Assembly (NCBI GenBank): GCA_948907985.1
Contig: CAQWMM010000003.1
Location: 7,173 to 71,172 of the forward strand
DNA from: an uncultured Bacillota bacterium
GTDB taxonomy: Bacteria; Bacillota; Dehalobacteriia; UBA4068; UBA4997
Direction of reading: 5' to 3'
Length of the DNA stretch: 64,000 bases
Numbering within the stretch: the stretch's first letter is position 1; every line of letters begins with the position of its first letter. Shown one piece after another: positions 1 to 45,744 of this stretch. Made by a program: the position numbers and the translations under genes. The notes under the pieces were generated by a model. The model saw only the letters and a program-made list of their open reading frames with translations. It was not told the origin of the DNA and searched no databases.

Positions 1-2403
1 GATATTAGCGTTATTGAGGCCCCCTTGGCTAAAGAAATGGTTTACTATCCAGGCCAGACCGTTACCTTTAAGTTGCCCAACAGCATTATGGCTAATTATA
101 ACGGGCAACTGCAATGGTCGATTGATAACGCCGGTGAGCTGGCGCTGTTTGGAATCACACTGACGCTTAGCGATCCTAAAGCGCCAATGCCTACGCTTAC
201 AATCCCCACCAACTTCCCTGTTGATAAAATCGATGAGATAAAGGTACGGGTGCATAACAGCGCGGTTGACGATCTGGATAAAACTACCGATAAAGTTCAG
301 AAAATCAGGGTGGAAAAATTTATCCCGGTCAGCAGCTTTACCGGTGAGCTGCCAAAGACAGTATATTTATCCCCGGAAAACGGCACCGCCGAGATTGATT
401 TGAGCGTTATTAAGATTAAAAACGCTGACGCCGCTACCTGCAAAACGATTGAATGGTATAACGGCGAAGATAAAATAGAGGGCGATAAGTTTTATGCCGA
501 GAAAGTCGGCCCGCTTACCTTAACCGCCAAAGTTGTTAACGGCACGCAGGCCTATGGCGACGCAAAAGACGCAGACTTTAGTCAATCCTTTAATATTGAG
601 GTTAAACCGGCGCAAACCGGGCCGATTGAAATTGTATCAGGCACCGAGCCTTTGGCAGGAGATAAGACCTATTATGCCGGACAAACAGCCGGTTTCAAAA
701 TGTCTGACGCGATAATGAATTTGTATGGCGGAACATTGGTATGGACTACCGACAATACCAAAGTAACAGGCGAAAAAGATACAAACAATAATTATGTTAT
801 TGATATTCCTGCCGATTTTTCCGGCAAGCTGAAGATAACCGCCACCAACCCCTCCACCGAGGAAAATATACCGCGGGAATATGAAATAACCGTATTGCCG
901 TTTACTTCATTTGATAACACAACATTTACAATTTCCAATCCAACGCATAAAGATAACACCCCTGATGTTAAAATAGGCGGTACGTTACCGCTTAAATATG
1001 ATGTAACCGGCGATGATTGGAACAAAGACCTGCAAACAATCACCTGGGGCTTTGCCAAAGGGGATAGACACGAGAGCGAAAAAACCACAATTGACGACAA
1101 AGGCGTCCTTACTATTGGTGCTGATGAAACTGCCGACACAATCAAGGTGGTTGCCACAATGGCAAACGGTCGGTTGGTTGACAACAAGCTGGAAGAGTTG
1201 CCTTCTAATACTTTAGATATTTCGGTTGATCGTCTGAATGTCAGCAATATCTTCTGGCAGCGTGATACCAAGGATGATCCGACACTCATTGGCGAAAATG
1301 ATATTCCGGAGTTTTACGCCGGTGAAAATATTACATTCTCAGCTGACGCATTGTCTACTTCGGTAGGTGGGCGCGATATTGAATGGAATATCACCAATTT
1401 AGATGCTATTATGAAACTATACCCAACTGCTAAAATTGATATTGACGGCGGCAAACTAATCGGCACTGATGTTATTAAGGCAGACACAACACTAAATATT
1501 ACCGCTCAAACTGTCGGCGCGGCCAAAGAGGTATCTGTATTGATTAAACCTTTCACTTCGGTAAGTAAATTGGAAATTGCCGCTAATGGTTCTACAACCG
1601 TAGAAACTGGCCAAACCTTACAGTTTACGTCAACTGTTACGCCTGTTGACGCGACCAAGGCAAGCGATATTGAGTGGAGCATAATAACCACTCATAAAGA
1701 GGGAACAAAAATAGAGAATGGTTTATTAACTATTGCTAATGACGAAGATGCAAAAACGATTACAGTTCAGGCTGCTATTAGAAACGGCAAAATAGCTAGC
1801 AATAAATTGCAAGATGTAACCAGCAGTGCAAAGGTTACGCCGTTTACATCCGTATCCGATATTACTATTGACTACCAAAAAGAGGGAAATAATATACGGT
1901 TCTCGGCTACTGTAAATCCGACAACTGCAAGCGTTAAAACTGTTAAATGGACTATAAGCGGCAACAAATCAGGTACATCCATAAACGCAACAACTGGTCT
2001 GTTAACTATTGCCGCTGATGATGATAGCCTAATCACAGTTACGGCAACCATTGAAAAATGTAAATTAAACAATGGTACTTATGGAAATGTAACCGCGACG
2101 GCAACAGTTCAAAATGGTAGTGTAACTGTCCAGAGCGCCAGTGCAAATTCGCGCGCCAAGGTTGCCGCACAGCCGGCTACTTCCTCCGTACCCGCTACCA
2201 TAGAACCGGAAAAGAAAGTTGAGGAAGAAAAACAGACCAGCAGCAAGGACAATACTATCAAGAAGTCGGCTGCTGAAATCCGCGCCGAACAGGCCGCTGC
2301 CGAGCGCGAACAGATCGAGGCGGAAAAACGCGCCCAGAGGGCCCGTCAGTCTTCAATCGCCAAAGGCTCTGGCGTCAGCAAAACCCAGGTTTCTGCGGAT
2401 TAA
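1..2403 (+). CDS. Large cell-surface protein with at least 6-7 tandem bacterial Ig-like (Big_2-type) repeats. The 5' end is truncated by the window edge, since the reading frame is open to position 1.
   Basis: An 801-codon open frame runs from position 1. It has recurring ~80-aa modules (…TVQA.I.NGK…S.KV…PFTSVS…). The C-terminal ~90 aa are K/E/A-rich and low complexity, with no LPXTG or SLH motif. An intrinsic terminator follows. Confidence 0.5.
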   Translation, partial: DISVIEAPLAKEMVYYPGQTVTFKLPNSIMANYNGQLQWSIDNAGELALFGITLTLSDPKAPMPTLTIPTNFPVDKIDEIKVRVHNSAVDDLDKTTDKVQKIRVEKFIPVSSFTGELPKTVYLSPENGTAEIDLSVIKIKNADAATCKTIEWYNGEDKIEGDKFYAEKVGPLTLTAKVVNGTQAYGDAKDADFSQSFNIEVKPAQTGPIEIVSGTEPLAGDKTYYAGQTAGFKMSDAIMNLYGGTLVWTTDNTKVTGEKDTNNNYVIDIPADFSGKLKITATNPSTEENIPREYEITVLPFTSFDNTTFTISNPTHKDNTPDVKIGGTLPLKYDVTGDDWNKDLQTITWGFAKGDRHESEKTTIDDKGVLTIGADETADTIKVVATMANGRLVDNKLEELPSNTLDISVDRLNVSNIFWQRDTKDDPTLIGENDIPEFYAGENITFSADALSTSVGGRDIEWNITNLDAIMKLYPTAKIDIDGGKLIGTDVIKADTTLNITAQTVGAAKEVSVLIKPFTSVSKLEIAANGSTTVETGQTLQFTSTVTPVDATKASDIEWSIITTHKEGTKIENGLLTIANDEDAKTITVQAAIRNGKIASNKLQDVTSSAKVTPFTSVSDITIDYQKEGNNIRFSATVNPTTASVKTVKWTISGNKSGTSINATTGLLTIAADDDSLITVTATIEKCKLNNGTYGNVTATATVQNGSVTVQSASANSRAKVAAQPATSSVPATIEPEKKVEEEKQTSSKDNTIKKSAAEIRAEQAAAEREQIEAEKRAQRARQSSIAKGSGVSKTQVSAD

Positions 2404-2447
2404 CCTGAAAATTGGCGACAGGCCAGAATCAGTTTAAGTATAGTAAA

Positions 2448-2486
2448 ATAGCCGAACCTTTTTCTTGAGGGTTCGGCTATTTTTTC
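2448..2486. terminator. Bidirectional rho-independent terminator between the Ig-repeat gene (+) and the CotF-like gene (-).
   Basis: An 11 bp perfect stem (atagccgaacc / ggttcggctat) is followed by TTTTT on the plus strand. Confidence 0.65.
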
Positions 2487-2514
2487 TTTTGGCTAAAAGC
2501 TTTCGCGTGCAGCC

Positions 2515-2781
2515 CTAGTTAGCGCCCTGGCTGCAACAGAATTTTTGTTTGACAGAGTTGATTTTGTTCTGCTCTGCCTGGTCCGGGGAATACCAGCCTT
2601 TGGCGGACATTTTGTTGTAGATATTGTCTTGAATGGCCAGCGAATTGTTAAGGGCGCTGTTGAAAGTTTGATGCACGTTGGCGGTGGAGGATTCGATAGC
2701 GCCGTGCATATAGAGATCGCAGACGCCTTTTTCCAGCAGCAGCATATTTTCCATCAGGTTTTTATCGTTATTGTTGTTCAT
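2515..2781 (-). CDS. Spore coat protein F (Coat_F domain) family protein, 88 aa.
   Basis: The protein carries Coat_F-like motifs (LLLEKGVCDLYMHGAIESST…MSAKGWYSPDQAEQNKINSVKQKF). An RBS (AAGGAGG) sits upstream of the ATG. Confidence 0.5.
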   Translation of the reverse strand: MNNNNDKNLMENMLLLEKGVCDLYMHGAIESSTANVHQTFNSALNNSLAIQDNIYNKMSAKGWYSPDQAEQNKINSVKQKFCCSQGAN

Positions 2782-2793
2782 GGGGGGCCTCCT

Positions 2794-2967
2794 TTACAGC
2801 AGACTGAAAAAGCTTTGATAAATTTGTTGGTTCTTTTGCGCCATTTGCTGAACGCAGGTTTTTAATTCGGCGTCTTGCAGCTGGCCGAGGGTTTCTTGGC
2901 ATTTGCTTTGAAAATACTGCGCATGGCCGAGAGCGTCTTCAATATACAGCAGTTCTTTGCTCGTCAT
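2794..2967 (-). CDS. Small hypothetical protein (57 aa) directly upstream of, and co-oriented with, the CotF-like gene.
   Basis: ATG with an AGGAGGT RBS at 6 nt spacing, giving MTSKELLYIEDALGHAQYFQ…SFFSLL. It lies 12 nt before the cotF-like start. It is shorter than the 60 aa cutoff of the ORF track. Confidence 0.35.
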   Translation of the reverse strand: MTSKELLYIEDALGHAQYFQSKCQETLGQLQDAELKTCVQQMAQKNQQIYQSFFSLL

Positions 2968-3059
2968 GGTTTGTACCTCCTGAGTAATCGTTTTGTTGTC
3001 TGTGTATAGATAGTTTGCCCGGGGCGGCGGGTTTTATTCATTTTTTTGCTTTGCCGCAT

Positions 3060-3100
3060 GATGGCATGGAATGTCCGATTGAGATGTGTTAAAATGCTAG
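3060..3100 (+). promoter_or_regulatory. Copy A of a 40 bp direct repeat that carries an extended -10 promoter (TGtTAAAAT), upstream of the small terminase gene.
   Basis: gatggcatggaatgtccgattgagatgtgttaaaatg matches 4780-4819 at 37 of 40 positions. The TGn plus -10 sits at the same offset in both copies. Confidence 0.45.
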
Positions 3101-3135
3101 TATAAAAAAATATGAAAAATTTTAGGGGGGATTAT

Positions 3136-3363
3136 ATGGTGGAAAAAGCCAGGCGGGCAGTGGCCTGCAAAACGGAGATTATGCAGTTTTTGACGGAGGT
3201 GATGCGCGGCGAGCTGGACGCGCCCAAGGTGAGCGAGCGAACCAAGGCGGCGGAACTGTTGGGGCGCAGCAAGCATATTTTTTCTGATAAGGCGGAGAAA
3301 AATAAAGAGGCCGAGCGGGCGTTGGAGGTGAGAATTTGGGGCGAGGATGATTTGGCGGATTGA
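3136..3363 (+). CDS. Phage small terminase subunit, PBSX XtmA-like, truncated. Only the C-terminal region is present and the N-terminal HTH DNA-binding domain is absent.
   Basis: EIMQFLTEVMRGEL…PKVSERTKAAELLGRS resembles the C-terminal half of XtmA/Terminase_2. An in-frame stop at 3103-3105 prevents any N-terminal extension. RBS AGGGGGG precedes the ATG at 3136. Confidence 0.55.
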   Translation: MVEKARRAVACKTEIMQFLTEVMRGELDAPKVSERTKAAELLGRSKHIFSDKAEKNKEAERALEVRIWGEDDLAD

Positions 3364-4628
3364 GATTGGCCGTGGGGCGGAAAGGCGGTGAGGGTGTGCA
3401 GGAAATATATCTGCCGGATTTGGTGGGCGGAGGTTATCGGGATTTTTGGCATTTTACCGGCCGCTACCGCGTGGTGAAAGGCAGCCGGGCCAGCAAGAAA
3501 TCCAAAACGACGGCGCTTAATTTGATTTGGCGGCTGCTACGCCTGCCGCAGACCAATTTGTTGGTGGTGCGCAAAACTTACCGCTCTTTGCGAGATTCGT
3601 GCTATGCGGAACTTTGCTGGGCAATCCGGCGGCTGGGCGTGGAAGCGGCCTGGCAGCGCCGGGAGGAGCCTTTGGAACTGACCTATTTGCCGACGGGGCA
3701 GAAGATCTTTTTTCGGGGGTTGGATGACCCGCAAAAAATAACTTCGATTGCCGCGCGGCAGGGACAGCTCTGTTTTTTATGGCTGGAGGAGGCCTATGAG
3801 GTTAGCCGGGAGGAAGATTTTGCTATTTTGGATGAGAGTATTCGGGGCGAGGCCCCTTTTAAGCAGCTGACGCTGACTTTTAACCCGTGGAATGAAAACC
3901 ACTGGTTAAAGCGGCGTTTTTTTGACTGCCCGGCTAGCCCGGATATTTTGGCCAAGACGGTGGATTATCGCTGCAATGAGTTTTTGGACGAGGCCGACCG
4001 GCGCGTTTTTGCCAATATGGCCATTCAGAACCCGCGGCGTTACCGGGTGGCCGGTTTGGGAGAATGGGGCGTGGCCGAGGGGCTGGTTTATGAAAACTGG
4101 CGCGAGGCGGACTTTGACTGGCGGGAGGCAGCCGCGGGGGCGCAGGCGCGCAGTATCTTTGGGCTGGATTTTGGTTATGTGAATGATGAGACAGCTCTGT
4201 TTTGTGGCCTGGTTGATTTGACGGCGCGGCGTATTTGGGTTTTTGATGAGATATACCGGCGGGGGTTGAGCAATGAGCAGCTTTATGCCGAGATTGTGGC
4301 TAAGGGTTATGCTAAGGAGAAAATTTGCGCGGACAGCGCCGAGCCGAAGAGCATTGACCGCCTGCGGGAACTGGGCTTGAGCCGGATTAAGCCTGCGCGC
4401 AAGGGAGCGGACAGCGTGCGGCACGGAATTGACTTTTTGCAGGGTTTTGAAATTTTGGTATCGCCGCGCTGCCCCAATTTTTTGGCCGAGATCAGCGCGT
4501 ATAGCTGGCAGACAGACAAAAATGGCCGGCTGCTGAATGTGCCGGAGGACGGGCATAATCATTTGATGGACGCGATGCGTTATGCGGCGGAGGATTTGCT
4601 GCGGGGAGCCAGTTTTAGTTTTGCCTAA
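3360..4628 (+). CDS. Phage large terminase subunit, PBSX/Terminase_3 family.
   Basis: A Walker-A-like YRVVKGSRASKKSKT motif and family-typical N- and C-terminal nuclease regions. It overlaps the terS stop. The start codon is uncertain (TTG at 3360 or a downstream GTG). Confidence 0.85.
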   Translation: MRLAVGRKGGEGVQEIYLPDLVGGGYRDFWHFTGRYRVVKGSRASKKSKTTALNLIWRLLRLPQTNLLVVRKTYRSLRDSCYAELCWAIRRLGVEAAWQRREEPLELTYLPTGQKIFFRGLDDPQKITSIAARQGQLCFLWLEEAYEVSREEDFAILDESIRGEAPFKQLTLTFNPWNENHWLKRRFFDCPASPDILAKTVDYRCNEFLDEADRRVFANMAIQNPRRYRVAGLGEWGVAEGLVYENWREADFDWREAAAGAQARSIFGLDFGYVNDETALFCGLVDLTARRIWVFDEIYRRGLSNEQLYAEIVAKGYAKEKICADSAEPKSIDRLRELGLSRIKPARKGADSVRHGIDFLQGFEILVSPRCPNFLAEISAYSWQTDKNGRLLNVPEDGHNHLMDAMRYAAEDLLRGASFSFA

Positions 4629-4631
4629 AAA

Positions 4632-4750
4632 AGTTCACTAGTACTCCATCTGCTTTGTCATTAGGCTGTTTGGCTTCGTCAACGTACTATTAGTACGCCT
4701 CCTCGCCGCACAGTCTAATTCCTCGCATTTGGGGCACTATTGAACTTTTT
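4632..4750 (+). other. Structured intergenic element between terL and portal. A long-range stem (agttcactagtac…ggcactattgaact) is followed by TTTTT. It encloses a 29 nt palindrome-containing motif.
   Basis: The outer complementary arms match at 11 of 13 positions. A U-run lies at 4746-4750. The internal perfect palindrome is CGTACTATTAGTACG. Confidence 0.35.
4676..4704 (+). repeat. 29 nt motif tcgtcaacgtactattagtacgcctcctc (7-1-7 palindrome plus a CCTCCTC tail), copy 1.
   Basis: Its reverse complement recurs at 29205-29233 with one mismatch. Confidence 0.6.
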
Positions 4751-4779
4751 AGTTTAGTAAAATATCCTTAGGAAAAAAA

Positions 4780-4819
4780 GATGGCATGGAATGTCCGATT
4801 GTGATGTGTTAGAATGGTA
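4780..4819 (+). promoter_or_regulatory. Copy B of the 40 bp repeat with an extended -10 (TGtTAGAAT), upstream of the portal gene.
   Basis: It matches 3060-3100. A strong RBS (GAGGAGGG) lies downstream. Confidence 0.45.
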
Positions 4820-4875
4820 TCATCAGGAAAGAATGAGAGCAACAGAAAAAGATTGAGGAGGGATGAAAAATTATA

Positions 4876-6366
4876 ATGCAAAAAATTGCCGATGCGTGCC
4901 GCAGGCTGAGTTCAGCCGGCGGTTTTTTGTACGCCGGAAAAGGCGGGCAGCCCGAGGAGCTGGAGGTGTTGGCCTGGGAACTGGAACGCTGGCTGACCTC
5001 GGAGCGGCGGCGTTGGATGGTGTTGGGCGAAGAATATTTTGCCGGCCGGCAGGATATTCTGCGGGAGCAGCGCCTGGTGATTGGGCGCGGCGGCCAGTTG
5101 GAGCCGGCCCAAAATCTGCCGAATAACCGGCTGGTGAATAATCAGTATGCCAAGTTGGTGAACCAGAAAACCAACTATATGTTGGGGCAACCGATTAGCT
5201 GGGAGGCGGAATGCCCAAAATTTGCCGACGCGTTGAGCCGGGTTTTTGACCGGACGTTTATGCGGCTGTTAAAAAGGCTGGGCAAGGATTGTTATAATCA
5301 GGGGATTGCCTGGCTTTATCCGTATATTGATTTGAGCGGGCGGCTGGCCTTTGCCCGCTTTGGCGGCCGGGAGATTTTGCCCTTTTGGGCGGACGCGGAA
5401 CATAATATTTTAACGGGCGCTTTGCGTTTGTTTGGCCGGGAGGTTTGGCGGCGGGGGCGGCTGCAAACCGTTTGGGGCGTGGAAGTGTATGATAGCGGCG
5501 GGGTGCGCCGGTTTGGCTGGGAGCCGGGGGCCGGCAGGCTGACGGCCTGGCAGTGGGACGCGCCGGGCGAGCGAGCGGACAATTCGGCGGCGGGCCGGCG
5601 GCTGGCTTATTTGCGGCATCGGACGGCGGCTGGTGGCTGGGAGGAATTTAATTGGCAGCGCGTGCCGTTGATTCCTTTTAAGCTGAATGAAAGGGAACAG
5701 CCTTTGATCTGCCGGGTGAAATCCTTGCAGGACGCGCTGAATACCATGTTATCTGGTTTTGAAAACGTTATGCAGGAAGACAGCCGCAACACAATTTTGG
5801 TGATTAAAAATTATGACGGTACGGATTTGGCGGAGTTTCGACATAATTTGGCGGCGTTTGGGGCGGTTAAGGTGAAAACGATCGACGGCGCGGAGGGCGG
5901 TATTGACAGCCTGGCCGTTGAAGTGGACGCCGGCAATTATCAGGCTATTCTGGAACTTTTGCAGCGGGCGATTATTGAAAACGGTTTGGGGTTTGATTCT
6001 AAGCTGGACCGGGCTTATCGGGCGGCCAATGAGTTGAATATTAAATCAATGTATAGCGACATATGCCTGGACGCTAACGATTTGGAAACTGAATGGCAGG
6101 CCAGTTTTACCGACTTGCTGTGGTTTGTGAAACGCTATCTGGCGATGAGCGGACAGGGCGATTTTCTGGATTGTGGCTGGCGGCTGATTTTTAACCGGGA
6201 CATTATGATTGACGAAAGCGAGGTTATTGACAACTGTTTGAAATCCCGCGGGCTGCTTTCGGATAAATCAATTATTGCCCAGCACCCCTGGGTGAACGAC
6301 GTGGAGGGCGAGCTGCGCCGTTTGCAGGCGCAGGCCAAACAGGAAAATGACGAGGCGCAGTTATGA
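4876..6366 (+). CDS. Phage portal protein, SPP1 gp6-like.
   Basis: NNRLVNNQYAKLVNQKTNYMLGQP is portal-family motif text. The protein is 496 aa and sits immediately after terL. The exact start is ambiguous, because the RBS is 15 nt from the ATG. Confidence 0.8.
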   Translation: MQKIADACRRLSSAGGFLYAGKGGQPEELEVLAWELERWLTSERRRWMVLGEEYFAGRQDILREQRLVIGRGGQLEPAQNLPNNRLVNNQYAKLVNQKTNYMLGQPISWEAECPKFADALSRVFDRTFMRLLKRLGKDCYNQGIAWLYPYIDLSGRLAFARFGGREILPFWADAEHNILTGALRLFGREVWRRGRLQTVWGVEVYDSGGVRRFGWEPGAGRLTAWQWDAPGERADNSAAGRRLAYLRHRTAAGGWEEFNWQRVPLIPFKLNEREQPLICRVKSLQDALNTMLSGFENVMQEDSRNTILVIKNYDGTDLAEFRHNLAAFGAVKVKTIDGAEGGIDSLAVEVDAGNYQAILELLQRAIIENGLGFDSKLDRAYRAANELNIKSMYSDICLDANDLETEWQASFTDLLWFVKRYLAMSGQGDFLDCGWRLIFNRDIMIDESEVIDNCLKSRGLLSDKSIIAQHPWVNDVEGELRRLQAQAKQENDEAQL

Positions 6367-7316
6367 AACAGTTTGATTTGTTGATTGGCAACGGCGAAGA
6401 CTGGCTGAGGCCGCAGGTTTTAAGCGGCCTGCGCTTGCAGCGGGGGGCTAACGCGGCGGCGGTGTTGGATTTTGCGGTGCTTAAAAACGGTATGCTTAAC
6501 TTTTTGGAGGGCGCGCCGGTGCGGCTGTTGGTTGACGGGCAGGTGATTTTTGCCGGGCGGGTGTTTGCCAAAAAGCGCAGTCAGCCGGAAATTATTCAGG
6601 TTCGGGCTTATGACCAGCTGCGTTATTTGCAAAACCGGGACTGCTGCGTTATGCAGGATTTTTCGCCGGGGGATTTGCTGCGGCGGATTTGCAGCGAGAA
6701 TAATTTGCAGATTGGAACGGTGGCGGATTGTGGGGTGCGCCTGTCGGCGCATAGCTTTGACAACCGGCGCTATCTGGATATGCTGGGGGAGGTGTTGAAT
6801 GAGGTTTGGCAGGCCAAGGGCAGCCGCTATTTTGTTTATGACGAGGCCGGCAAAATCTGCCTGCGGAGCTGCTGGGATTTGCGGGTGAATATTCTGTTGG
6901 CGGAGAACTGCATTGGCGGCTATGAATATGCTACCTCGGTGGACGGACAAACCTTTAACCGGGTTAAGGTGATTTATGAGGATAAGCGCAAGGGCCTGCG
7001 CAAGGAGTTTGTGGCGGAGAACCGGGAGCGAATTGACGATTGGGGGCCATTGCAGCTGGTGAGCAAGAGCGCCGACGCTAGGCAGCAGACTTATAGCCGG
7101 GCCAGAGAACTTTTGCAGGCTTATCAGCGGCGGCAGGAAAGCCTGGTGGTGCGGGACGCGCCAGGGGATTGGCGGGTACGCGGCGGCGGCATGGTTGGCC
7201 TGCGTTTGAATTTGGGCGAGCAGCTGGTGGACTGTTGGGCGTTGGTGAAAAGAGCGGAGCACAGAATTGTGGCGGGAAATTGTTTGATGAATTTAAACCT
7301 GGAGTGTATATATTAA
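6363..7316 (+). CDS. XkdQ/YqbQ-family phage tail protein (late-control-D/hub-like).
   Basis: Recalled similarity to B. subtilis XkdQ: GAPVRLLVDGQVIFAGRVF…IQVRAYDQLRYLQN…ESLVVRDAPGD parallels GDGIKFYWKGKLLFLGAVY…LVAYDDIWYLANN…ESLSVTTIG. Confidence 0.6.
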   Translation: MKQFDLLIGNGEDWLRPQVLSGLRLQRGANAAAVLDFAVLKNGMLNFLEGAPVRLLVDGQVIFAGRVFAKKRSQPEIIQVRAYDQLRYLQNRDCCVMQDFSPGDLLRRICSENNLQIGTVADCGVRLSAHSFDNRRYLDMLGEVLNEVWQAKGSRYFVYDEAGKICLRSCWDLRVNILLAENCIGGYEYATSVDGQTFNRVKVIYEDKRKGLRKEFVAENRERIDDWGPLQLVSKSADARQQTYSRARELLQAYQRRQESLVVRDAPGDWRVRGGGMVGLRLNLGEQLVDCWALVKRAEHRIVAGNCLMNLNLECIY

Positions 7317-29204: not shown

Positions 29205-29233
29205 GAGGAGGCGTACTAATAGTACGTCGACGA
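29205..29233 (-). repeat. Copy 2 (reverse orientation) of the 29 nt palindromic motif, in the FNT-sufCD promoter/leader region.
   Basis: It matches the reverse complement of 4676-4704 at 28 of 29 positions. Local hairpins are nearby (cgacga-ttcgag-tcgtcg; gattca-aa-tgaatc). Confidence 0.6.
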
Positions 29234-44527: not shown

Positions 44528-44947
44528 TCAGGAGGCTCGTTTGGCGTTATCTGGGGGAAACAGACGCGCCAGGGTTTGCTTTTGCCGGCGGTTTAGCTGG
44601 CGCACGCTGTAGCCCAAACGCTCGGCGGTTTTTTCCCAGGTCAGACCCTCGATATAATAAAGCCGCAGCAGGCGGCGTTCTTCTGGCTGCAAATTGGCAA
44701 TAAATTCTTCAATTTCCTGCCGCAGGGCGATTAGCTGGTTCAGGCGCTGGGCCAAAAGCTGGCTTAGCTGCCAAAGCCGGGCGGCGGTATCGGATACGGC
44801 GTCTTTCACCAGCCCCTTGCGCCGGCTGCCGTTGCCGAGCGGCCAGCTGGCGGGCAGGCTGCCCTGCGCCAAAGCCTCTTTTTCGTCCTCCAGTTCTCTG
44901 ATTTCATAGCATAACTGCCGGTACTGCATAAGCGATTGTTTGTCCAT
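44528..44947 (-). CDS. Sigma-70 region-4-like small transcriptional regulator (ArpU/RinA/DUF1492-like phage late activator type), 139 aa.
   Basis: A C-terminal ERRLLRLYYIEGLTWEKTAERLGYSVRQLNRRQKQTLARL motif, which is a region-4 HTH. The N-terminus is a coiled coil. A consensus promoter (TTGACA, 17 bp spacer, TATATT) lies at 45018-45046 on the minus strand. Confidence 0.5.
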   Translation of the reverse strand: MDKQSLMQYRQLCYEIRELEDEKEALAQGSLPASWPLGNGSRRKGLVKDAVSDTAARLWQLSQLLAQRLNQLIALRQEIEEFIANLQPEERRLLRLYYIEGLTWEKTAERLGYSVRQLNRRQKQTLARLFPPDNAKRAS

Positions 44948-45079
44948 ATCATACTACCCTCCGTAATGTTAAGTATTTCAAACGCTTGGCGTTTGTTGAG
45001 TTGCTTTTTACGTTACAAATATAACACTAAATGAGTTGCTTGTCAAGTACTTTTTTCTGCAAAAAGTTTGCAAAAACTG

Positions 45080-45108
45080 TTGCATTTTACGGAACAATGT
45101 GGTATAAT
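45080..45108 (+). promoter_or_regulatory. Promoter of the S24 repressor gene (TTGCAT, 17 bp spacer, TGgTATAAT), flanked by palindromes.
   Basis: An extended -10. The palindromes are TGCAAAaagTTTGCA (45058-45072) and CAAACGCttgGCGTTTG (44979-44995), both in the divergent intergenic region. Confidence 0.5.
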
Positions 45109-45129
45109 GCCGGGCAAGAGGTGATTTAT

Positions 45130-45744
45130 ATGACGACTGGCAGTAAGCTTAAGGCCAGGCGCAAACAGCTTGGCCTGACATTGGAGGAGCTGGCCGGCCA
45201 CATTGGCGTAACCAGACAAACGTTGAGCCGCTATGAAAACGGGGTGATCGCCAACATCCCTATGGAGCGGATTGAGCGTTTGGCCGCGGCCATGCAAACC
45301 ACGCCGGGCGAACTTTTGGGTTGGCAGGACAATGATTTTTTAGAGTATCAGCCCAACCGGCGGGTGCCGATTTTGGGGCGGATTTCCGCCGGGCTGCCGC
45401 TTTATGCGGAAGAGCAGGTGGAGGGCGCAATTTGGGTGGAGGTCGGCGGCGCCGGCGAATACTTTGCCCTGCGCGTTAAGGGCGACAGCATGAACGCCGC
45501 CCACATTTTTGAGGGCAATCTGCTGATTGTGCGCAAGCAGGATATTGTGGAAAACGGCGAGATCGCCGTGGTGATGATTGACGACAACGACGCCACCGTT
45601 AAACGTTTTCATCGCCAGGGCCACATTGTAACCCTGCTGCCGCAGTCTACCAATCCGGAGCACCTGCCCCAGATTTATGATACGCGCAAAACAGCGGTGC
45701 GGGTGATTGGCAAGGTGATTAAAAACGAAATTATTTTTGAGTAA
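45130..45744 (+). CDS. XRE-HTH plus S24 peptidase autocleavable repressor (LexA/CI/HdiR-like).
   Basis: An HTH_XRE (LKARRKQLGLTLEELAGHIGVTRQTLSRYENG), an Ala-Gly site (ISAGLP), a Ser nucleophile (GDSM) and a Lys (TVKRF). It is not the canonical winged-HTH LexA. Confidence 0.7.
   Translation: MTTGSKLKARRKQLGLTLEELAGHIGVTRQTLSRYENGVIANIPMERIERLAAAMQTTPGELLGWQDNDFLEYQPNRRVPILGRISAGLPLYAEEQVEGAIWVEVGGAGEYFALRVKGDSMNAAHIFEGNLLIVRKQDIVENGEIAVVMIDDNDATVKRFHRQGHIVTLLPQSTNPEHLPQIYDTRKTAVRVIGKVIKNEIIFE

Follow-up and report, generated by a model that had tools for sequence, protein, structure and literature searches.

Why does one bacterial locus carry almost the same 40 base pairs (bp) twice, ahead of two different genes of a phage-derived cluster? 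The locus lies in a 64,000-nucleotide (nt) stretch of DNA from an uncultured Bacillota bacterium (GTDB lineage Bacteria; Bacillota; Dehalobacteriia; UBA4068; UBA4997), positions 7,173 to 71,172 of the forward strand of contig CAQWMM010000003.1 in GenBank assembly GCA_948907985.1. We call this whole stretch the window and number it from its first letter. On the plus strand, copy 1 (3060-3099) stands ahead of a short terS-like gene and copy 2 (4780-4819) ahead of a portal gene. An earlier reading of the letters, hereafter the original prediction, had taken both copies for late promoters that share a recognition element for an activator or an alternative sigma factor, and had pointed to a sigma-like regulator encoded at 44528-44947. 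The comparative evidence supports the shared activator element and the suggested regulator. We put at roughly 70% the probability that each copy is a late promoter of the type served by Ltr proteins, a superfamily of small phage regulators, in which an activator would bind two half-sites beside a housekeeping extended -10 element.

The two 40-mers agree at 37 of 40 positions and differ at three, as had been claimed, and each reads GATGGCATGGAATGTCCGATTG(A/T)GATGTGTTA(A/G)AATG. A 37-nt degenerate consensus matches these two copies and nothing else on both strands of the window, and has no match in 100 dinucleotide shuffles. In a position-weight-matrix (PWM) scan of the window, copy 1 scores 43.6 bits and copy 2 scores 43.1, while the next match reaches 8.9 and the shuffle maximum is at most 19.8. 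The pair, filed as family D17, is the longest, and the only long, true repeat family of the window. Consensus, composite-pattern and PWM searches found no third copy in the 64 kb, and by PWM there is none downstream of the portal gene start. Among 185,579 species genomes (the source species is not one of them), the exact 19-mer GGCATGGAATGTCCGATTG occurs twice, in unrelated organisms and without a -10 element; about four matches are expected by chance. A search of 2400-5400 against Rfam at E values up to 1 returned nothing relevant.

The left border of the similarity is abrupt at 3060 and 4780, and on the right it fades a few bases past the -10-like element. The original prediction had named a longer duplicated coding segment as the outcome that would count against it; both copies are intergenic and neither belongs to such a segment. 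Copy 1 occupies the gap between the cotF-like and terS-like genes (2968-3135), with two divergently oriented cotF-like genes (2515-2967, minus strand) on one side and the short terS-like gene on the other. Copy 2 lies in the gap between terL and the portal gene (4629-4875).

Each copy has the anatomy of a promoter with a repeated upstream site. In copy 1, half-site 1 (ATGGCA, 3061-3066, about -41 to -36) and half-site 2 (ATGTCC, 3071-3076, about -31 to -26) follow one another at a 10-bp period, one helical turn, and 13 nt separate the end of half-site 2 from the hexamer of a TG-extended -10 element, TGTTAAAAT, at 3087-3095. Copy 2 repeats this arrangement on the same strand, with half-sites at 4781-4786 and 4791-4796 and the extended -10 element TGTTAGAAT at 4807-4815, so that the equal offset noted in the original prediction is confirmed. 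Both -10 elements combine the TG with a match at five of the six hexamer positions. The -35 position (TGGAAT, 3067-3072, 17-bp spacer) matches at only three of six; it lies between and within the half-sites, the second of which overlaps its 3′ part. A generic promoter scanner listed neither site, because the -35 is weak. Read from its letters, the -10 is a normal housekeeping extended -10 that fits a TGnTATAAT-like element with a dispensable -35. Transcription would start near 3101-3104 (about 3102) and 4821-4824 (about 4822), which gives leaders of about 35 nt for copy 1 and 55 nt for copy 2.

The neighboring cotF genes prompted a comparison by eye with the consensus sequences of the sporulation sigma factors SigF, SigG, SigE and SigK, which we rejected because the -10 is not of the CATA type and relatives do not keep the GCATG. 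The SpoIIID (GGACA), Spo0A (TGTCGAA), PhoB (TGTCAT, 11-bp period) and WalR boxes are resemblances only, with a differing period or sequence and no supporting regulator context.

To what extent is this anatomy conserved? We gathered sites upstream of terS, terL, the portal gene and the chaperone gene in eight related elements, which gave 14 sites. Their common layout is aaGATGTCAtTGaATGTCCGG, eight or nine nt, then TGnTAnaAT, or ATGTC(A/C)-N4-ATGTCC-N13/14-TAnnAT. Half-site 1 of the window aligns with ATGTCA, ATGTCC or ATGGCG in these sites. In half-site 2 the GTC is invariant and GTCC is present throughout (GTCT in L016), the -10 hexamer follows at 13 or 14 nt in every case, and 12 of the 14 sites have the TG extension. 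When syntenic intergenic regions are aligned, only the motif and the ribosome-binding sites stand out as conserved blocks, and the flanks are unalignable. Copy 1 forms the invariant block of the cotF-terS alignment with L011 and L015, and copy 2 the conserved block of the portal-upstream alignment with L009, L014 and L015. Between the window and its 90% relative, L009, the two promoters are identical at 37 of 37 and 38 of 40 positions, although synonymous sites differ by about 38%; the synonymous divergence (dS) of coding sequences among relatives is 0.5-1.0.

Orthologous copies of the window and L009 are more alike than the two copies of one genome, and relatives as distant as 63% portal identity still have the portal-proximal promoter. 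The match at 37 of 40 positions thus reflects constraint on an old pair, and we reject recent duplication or gene conversion as its source. Half-site variants that are specific to a lineage are shared by the copies of one genome, for the window has GGCAT in both of its copies, L015 has GTCCT twice and L016 has GTCTGCC twice, which is the pattern expected from a shared binding protein. What had been described as some 30 bp of upstream recognition sequence, as opposed to two unrelated SigA promoters, is now seen as two half-sites at a 10-bp period that are kept across diverged relatives.

The promoter between terL and the portal gene had been called unusual for a single late transcript. This was overstated, since it recurs across the element family, in five of the seven other related elements with a readable junction (L009/L010, L013, L014, L015 and L016; L012 was left out of the count, being cut at the -10). 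It is absent from L011, in which terL and the portal gene are 22 bp apart with no promoter between them, and from L017. In L017 (2772-11437), motif copies precede terS, terL and an XkdN-like gene, three promoters with none before the portal gene, and the portal-upstream region is full of (GGATAGTT)n-type tandem repeats. In this element terS and terL are not adjacent, and the about 5 kb between them hold genes of host type (M23/G5 peptidase, bipA, eamA).

Which protein might read the half-sites? A search by motif, with a degenerate pattern against viral and metagenome collections, returned 12 phage or metagenome loci. At several of these, ATGTCC comes three times, once every 10 bp, ahead of terminase genes that are only distantly related. 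Three phage lineages, independent of one another, have a gene for a protein of 134-150 amino acids (aa) that ends exactly at the motif, and the terminase gene comes next. These proteins all match phrog_36 (E values of 1e-15 to 1e-27) and Sigma70_r4, and two of them pass DUF1492. A search by protein returned 28 IMG/VR loci with homologues about 30% identical to the product of the window open reading frame (ORF) at 44528-44947. Directly after the gene we looked for an exact repeat of at least 7 nt at a 10-bp period (unit ATGTC[C/G/T]) together with an extended -10, which is present at 23 of the 28 loci and in 3 of 494 control windows; the former count is inflated by close phages from one metagenome, as the 28 loci include many near-duplicates and amount to about seven distinct variants. 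The remaining five loci have imperfect or different repeats (GTTCG; AATACACAT).

The repeat and the protein also vary together. Homologues that are nearly identical elsewhere differ in the recognition-helix segment from one repeat type to another (GTTCG, ATGTCCC, ATGTCGC, ATGTCTC and ATACACAT). The cultured Acetoanaerobium phage ANDSL2_ph1 has the same design with another unit, ATGATACAC twice, followed by TATGAT. A regulator gene that adjoins the promoter or terS, as in Ltr systems, is seen in L020/21, L023, L028/30, L031-L058 and L066, and not in the window. The shared upstream element is in this way tied genomically to one regulator family.

Many of the phage relatives have a further feature behind the promoter. 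A terminator-like hairpin with a U-run lies in the leader downstream of the ATGTC-repeat promoter in L020, L021, L022, L027, L028, L030, L033, L043 and L066, and leader hairpins of this kind are also seen in L013 (4930-4990) and L016 (3950-3985). Those in the phages suggest that the regulator family may act through antitermination.

The window member of this family, encoded on the minus strand at 44528-44947, is our candidate for the cognate regulator: a basic protein of 139 aa (isoelectric point 9.55) with a helical hairpin and a sigma-70 region-4-like helix-turn-helix (HTH). It matches phrog_36 (E = 2.9e-22) and passes Sigma70_r4 (PF04545) with 33.4 bits against a cut-off of 24.1; with TIGR02937 it scores 40.9, below the cut-off of 42.9. 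It is 30% identical to the L028 protein, and its gene is under purifying selection, with a ratio of nonsynonymous to synonymous divergence (dN/dS) of 0.12-0.19. All Pfam, NCBIfam and PDB matches cover residues ~60-130 only, which correspond to sigma region 4. In the AlphaFold2 model (mean predicted local distance difference test score 81), a two-helix hairpin (residues 3-27 and 48-84) is followed by a three-helix domain, and the modelled region-4 domain superposes in Foldseek on the -35-binding domains of SigF, SigD and SigE at 1.7-2.0 Å. The PDB sequence search and Foldseek gave sigma region-4 domains only and no solved structure of a family member. Sigma region 2 was found neither in the Pfam, NCBIfam and PDB sequence matches nor in the AlphaFold model, which makes the protein less than a complete sigma factor. 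The alternative sigma factor that the original prediction had offered as an option does not fit a protein that lacks region 2 and a -10 of the normal housekeeping extended type; the ORF itself, which it had proposed as the regulator, is upheld as a candidate by its phrog_36 and Sigma70_r4 matches.

Divergent from the regulator gene, a CI/LexA-like repressor with HTH_3 and S24 peptidase domains is encoded at 45131-45744 on the plus strand (LexA model on the C-terminal domain, E = 8e-29, with HTH matches in addition). The 183-bp spacer between the two genes (44948-45130) holds a TTGACA-17-TATATT promoter that faces the regulator gene and is flanked by two direct repeats of TGAGTTGCTT (45008-45017 and 45032-45041), which are candidate operators. 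The pair sits among host genes, with glycogen synthase, amylomaltase, pgi and thioesterase genes on one side and ferredoxin-type, MatE, AraC and ksgA genes on the other. Relatives in which the regulator is 73-75% identical keep the pair in synteny from pgi/thioesterase to ferredoxin/MatE, with a repressor of 203-204 aa that has the HTH_3 and Peptidase_S24 domains; one such contig derives from the sample that also gave element L015. Purifying selection acts on the repressor gene as well as on the regulator gene.

These observations suggest the following circuit. The two direct half-sites, ATG(G/T)C(A/C), one helical turn apart at about -41 to -26, would occupy the -35 position in front of a TG-extended -10 of the housekeeping sigma factor. 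A small activator with a sigma-region-4-like HTH, most likely the 139-aa protein, would bind both half-sites and recruit or stabilize RNA polymerase at a promoter whose own -35 is poor. Upstream in the circuit would sit the self-cleaving CI/LexA-like repressor, presumed to be SOS-sensitive; as its gene is paired with that of the activator, derepression, for example by SOS, would turn on both promoters together. Copy 1 is predicted to drive the terS-like gene and terL, and copy 2 the portal gene together with the head, tail and peptidase genes of the next ~13.6 kb.

Several points weigh against this proposal, beside the redundancy among the 28 homologue loci. A conserved order of ltr gene, late promoter and terS could in principle place regulator and motif side by side without any binding, an objection against which the co-variation of helix and half-site argues. 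The 139-aa protein does not reach the cut-offs of the RinA family (TIGR01636, 21.0 bits against 31.9) or of LtrB/DUF1492 (PF07374, 14.4 bits against 21.5), the latter of which phage homologues pass in L023 (23.1 bits) and L028 (27.7 bits). Its gene lies 41 kb from copy 1 among host genes. It is the only family member in the window, and because the search of this genome covered these 64 kb, a paralogue elsewhere might be the cognate protein instead. With an extended -10 so close to consensus, the promoters may also be active on their own, without an activator.

This last point leads to two other ways of reading the half-sites. They could be the loading site of a Q-like antiterminator, instead of or besides an activator site, so that the sigma-r4-like protein would join RNA polymerase at a constitutive extended -10 promoter and terminators would then be overridden. 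A near-consensus -10 suits such an activator-independent promoter; in many phage loci, and also in L013 and L016, the leader behind a promoter of this layout holds a terminator-like hairpin, terL of the window has a long hairpin after it, and the published Ltr reporter data note a terminator between ltr and terS (PMC3753634). Family members also give weak matches to Q models (phrog_79, E ~1e-3; PF06530, E 0.006-0.07), but these are below threshold and confined to the HTH. Neither leader of the window (3096-3135 and 4816-4875) holds a terminator-like hairpin, and Ltr proteins are read as promoter activators in published work. We consider antitermination unlikely for the window promoters, while in the wider phrog_36 family the ATGTC box might be an antiterminator loading site rather than a simple activator site. 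The strength of the -10 alone would equally serve a promoter kept silent by an operator, with a repressor such as the CI-like S24 protein over the -35 until its cleavage; the site does overlap the -35 position, and a CI/LexA-like repressor is encoded in the window. Dimers of the CI/LexA type normally bind inverted repeats, however, and the half-sites are direct repeats. The region between the regulator and repressor genes has its own, different repeat (TGAGTTGCTT twice) and no ATGTCC motif, and in phages the half-site co-varies with the sigma-r4-like protein that is encoded alongside. Repression through the half-sites thus seems quite improbable to us.

A regulatory role of the upstream block could also be denied altogether. 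The copies flank terS and terL exactly and their -10 elements are housekeeping-like, as would be expected of two plain SigA promoters that are alike by duplication, or of recombination or packaging sites on either side of the terminase module. The ancestry of the portal-proximal promoter and the closer likeness of orthologous than of paralogous copies contradict a recent duplication or conversion; half-sites are kept at distances that saturate neutral sites, regulator genes of unrelated phages are followed by this motif too, and nothing ties the motif to pac or cos function. We regard this explanation as very improbable, and retain activation at two half-sites as the most likely reading of both copies.

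Between the terL stop codon and copy 2 lies an imperfect hairpin of 123 nt (4628-4750), with an A-run on one side and a U-run on the other. Its folding energy (dG) is -48.2 on the plus and -53.8 on the minus strand, with z scores of about -7.8 on both, and it has no Rfam match. Only the window species and its 90% relative have the hairpin; it is absent from L011, L014 and L015, and in L014 and L015 the promoter comes directly after terL. A 29-nt apical core, TCGTCRACGTACTATTAGTACGCCTCCTC, recurs at 29205-29233 in a palindromic intergenic region, again just 3′ of a gene and in sense orientation. The hairpin may be a dispersed palindromic element, terminator-like or resembling a miniature inverted-repeat transposable element, or a palindromic insertion. 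In the window species it probably separates two transcripts, and if it terminates transcription, copy 2 would keep the portal operon expressed.

What do the two promoters serve? The region from 3.1 to 18.5 kb (~15.5 kb) consists of phage structural genes for a PBSX-like head and contractile tail in scrambled order. It begins with the short terS-like gene (3136-3363, plus strand, 75 aa; phrog_51, E = 3.6e-4; dN/dS 0.18-0.25) and terL, the large terminase gene (3366-4628, plus strand; Terminase_3, E = 3e-50, and Terminase_3C, E = 1e-23; dN/dS 0.07-0.12). The SPP1-type portal gene (4876-6366, plus strand; SPP1_portal, E = 6e-63), whose product has a 48% match to Propionispora, is the first of a long operon (4.9-18.5 kb). 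It is followed by genes for an XkdQ/YqbQ-like protein (XkdQ/P/R-like), DUF2577 (XkdR-like), an unknown protein, an XkdN-type chaperone, an SU10-type capsid protein, tail terminator, sheath, tube, gp25-like, baseplate J and Mu gp48-like (XkdS/T/U-like) proteins, a probable fiber and an M23 peptidase. We found no integrase, repressor/immunity or replication genes in this cluster and recognized no gene of tape-measure size. Host genes flank it, with an SLH protein gene and the cotF-like genes on the left and lspA, rluD and rarA on the right.

Both genes directly behind the promoters had been said to start with ATGAAAAAT. The string is present at 3112 and 4863, and we rejected it as a common start codon. 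The ATG at 3112 has no Shine-Dalgarno sequence and is ATA in L009; the one at 4863 abuts a Shine-Dalgarno sequence and lies in another frame than the portal ORF, whose start is the ATG at 4876. The terS-like gene starts at the ATG at 3136, after AGGGGGG, as in the gene call of the metagenome-assembled genome taken as the source (GCA_949935695.1). Its 75-aa product aligns with residues 74-143 of the 145-aa Terminase_2 TerS of L013, that is, with the C-terminal half only. The N-terminal half, which in TerS is usually the DNA-binding domain, is missing, and the gene is still under purifying selection. A TerS without its DNA-recognition half might point to non-specific packaging, as in a gene transfer agent.

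Relatives at 63-90% portal identity keep the same scrambled gene order, and host-like genes stand directly before terS in all six relatives with a readable upstream flank. The cluster genes are under purifying selection (dN/dS 0.07-0.25 at dS 0.5-1.0). From its gene content and conservation, the cluster looks domesticated, a conserved, stripped-down, host-embedded PBSX-like element. A distant second case, with terL 33% identical, is seen in L026 (5480-10562 as oriented) and also in L025 and L029: host prkC and rsgA are followed by the promoter motif, an 86-aa TerS-like gene and terL, with no early phage genes between. The motif also occurs outside a terminase context, in L024 and L027, directly after an M23 peptidase gene (like the last gene of the window cluster) and before a 403-aa gene.

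The promoters themselves are mostly ordinary, and the host-embedded, rearranged PBSX-like cluster with its remote repressor/activator pair would be the more interesting part of the hypothesis. We suggest tentatively, and with more doubt than belief, that the promoters wire up a particle system of phage origin which an uncultured lineage of spore-forming Firmicutes has domesticated and inherits vertically: a stripped-down, rearranged PBSX-like cluster with a gene-transfer-agent-like TerS, and an orphan SOS-type repressor with an Ltr activator at a separate syntenic locus. If so, the ATGTC-N5-ATGTC box would be the defining cis-element of a remote-control regulon, and if the cluster makes particles, a Firmicute case would be added to the few known domesticated particle systems, with a circuit that runs from repressor to activator to two promoters. 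A predicted switch whose activator is unlinked from its target is the arrangement expected of a phage-derived element taken over by its host. The layout, a pair of ATGTC half-sites at a 10-bp period with an extended -10 at a distance of 13-14 nt, is in addition a testable cis-element for a large and mostly unstudied Ltr branch (phrog_36/sigma70_r4), with possible use in annotating late promoters of Clostridia-type phages and prophages.

How does the predicted switch compare with known late switches? With lambda-type Q systems it shares a DNA site within the late promoter, a constitutive-looking promoter and, in many relatives, a leader terminator; it differs in that significant Q homology is lacking and the window copies have no leader terminator. 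Alt of phage TP901-1 is reportedly an activator that acts on repeats upstream of the late promoter before terS, at a promoter said to lean on its -10 and not on its -35. Alt belongs to another protein family, one of narrow distribution, and the repeats on which it acts have another sequence. In PBSX of Bacillus subtilis, the repressor Xre and a sigma-like positive factor, Xpf, are said to control a late operon, with the regulators contiguous with that operon and a single late promoter described. The likeness extends to a defective, chromosomally fixed, myovirus-like element with XkdN/Q/R/S/T/U-type genes and to a cascade of repressor and sigma-like factor that is presumed to be SOS-responsive. 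In the window, by contrast, the gene order is scrambled, TerS is truncated and no gene of tape-measure size is recognized, and the candidate factor has no sigma region 2.

The Ltr superfamily, whose late promoters are those of temperate phages of Gram-positive bacteria, comprises RinA (phi11/80alpha), ArpU (phiFL2A), LtrA, which is sigma70_r4 (phage 37), LtrB, which is DUF1492, and LtrC (phi55) (Quiles-Puchalt et al. 2013, PMC3753634; for earlier work on RinA, Ferrer et al. 2011, PMC3152322). These small, basic proteins are under cI control, bind two to four direct repeats upstream of terS through a specificity set by the C-terminal region, and are the sole phage factor needed to turn on the packaging, morphogenesis and lysis genes (PMC3753634). 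The window system resembles them in its small, basic regulator with a C-terminal sigma-r4-like HTH, in the direct repeats ahead of the terS promoter, in the co-variation of C-terminal region and repeats, in a regulator that is presumed to act downstream of a CI-type repressor and in its predicted targets, the packaging and morphogenesis genes. As the regulator passes Sigma70_r4 and falls below the RinA and DUF1492 cut-offs, we file it under the working label Ltr-like, in the sigma70_r4 branch by domain content, and claim no membership of RinA or DUF1492 for it. Whereas characterized Ltr genes lie immediately upstream of terS, the window regulator is 41 kb away, between host pgi/thioesterase and ferredoxin/MatE genes; each element has two promoters (three in L017) and not one, and the window half-sites cover the -35 position at -41 to -26 with a strict 10-bp period. 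Most likely, then, this is a late promoter switch of a known regulatory kind in an unusual arrangement, with two promoters and a regulator pair that stands unlinked among host genes.

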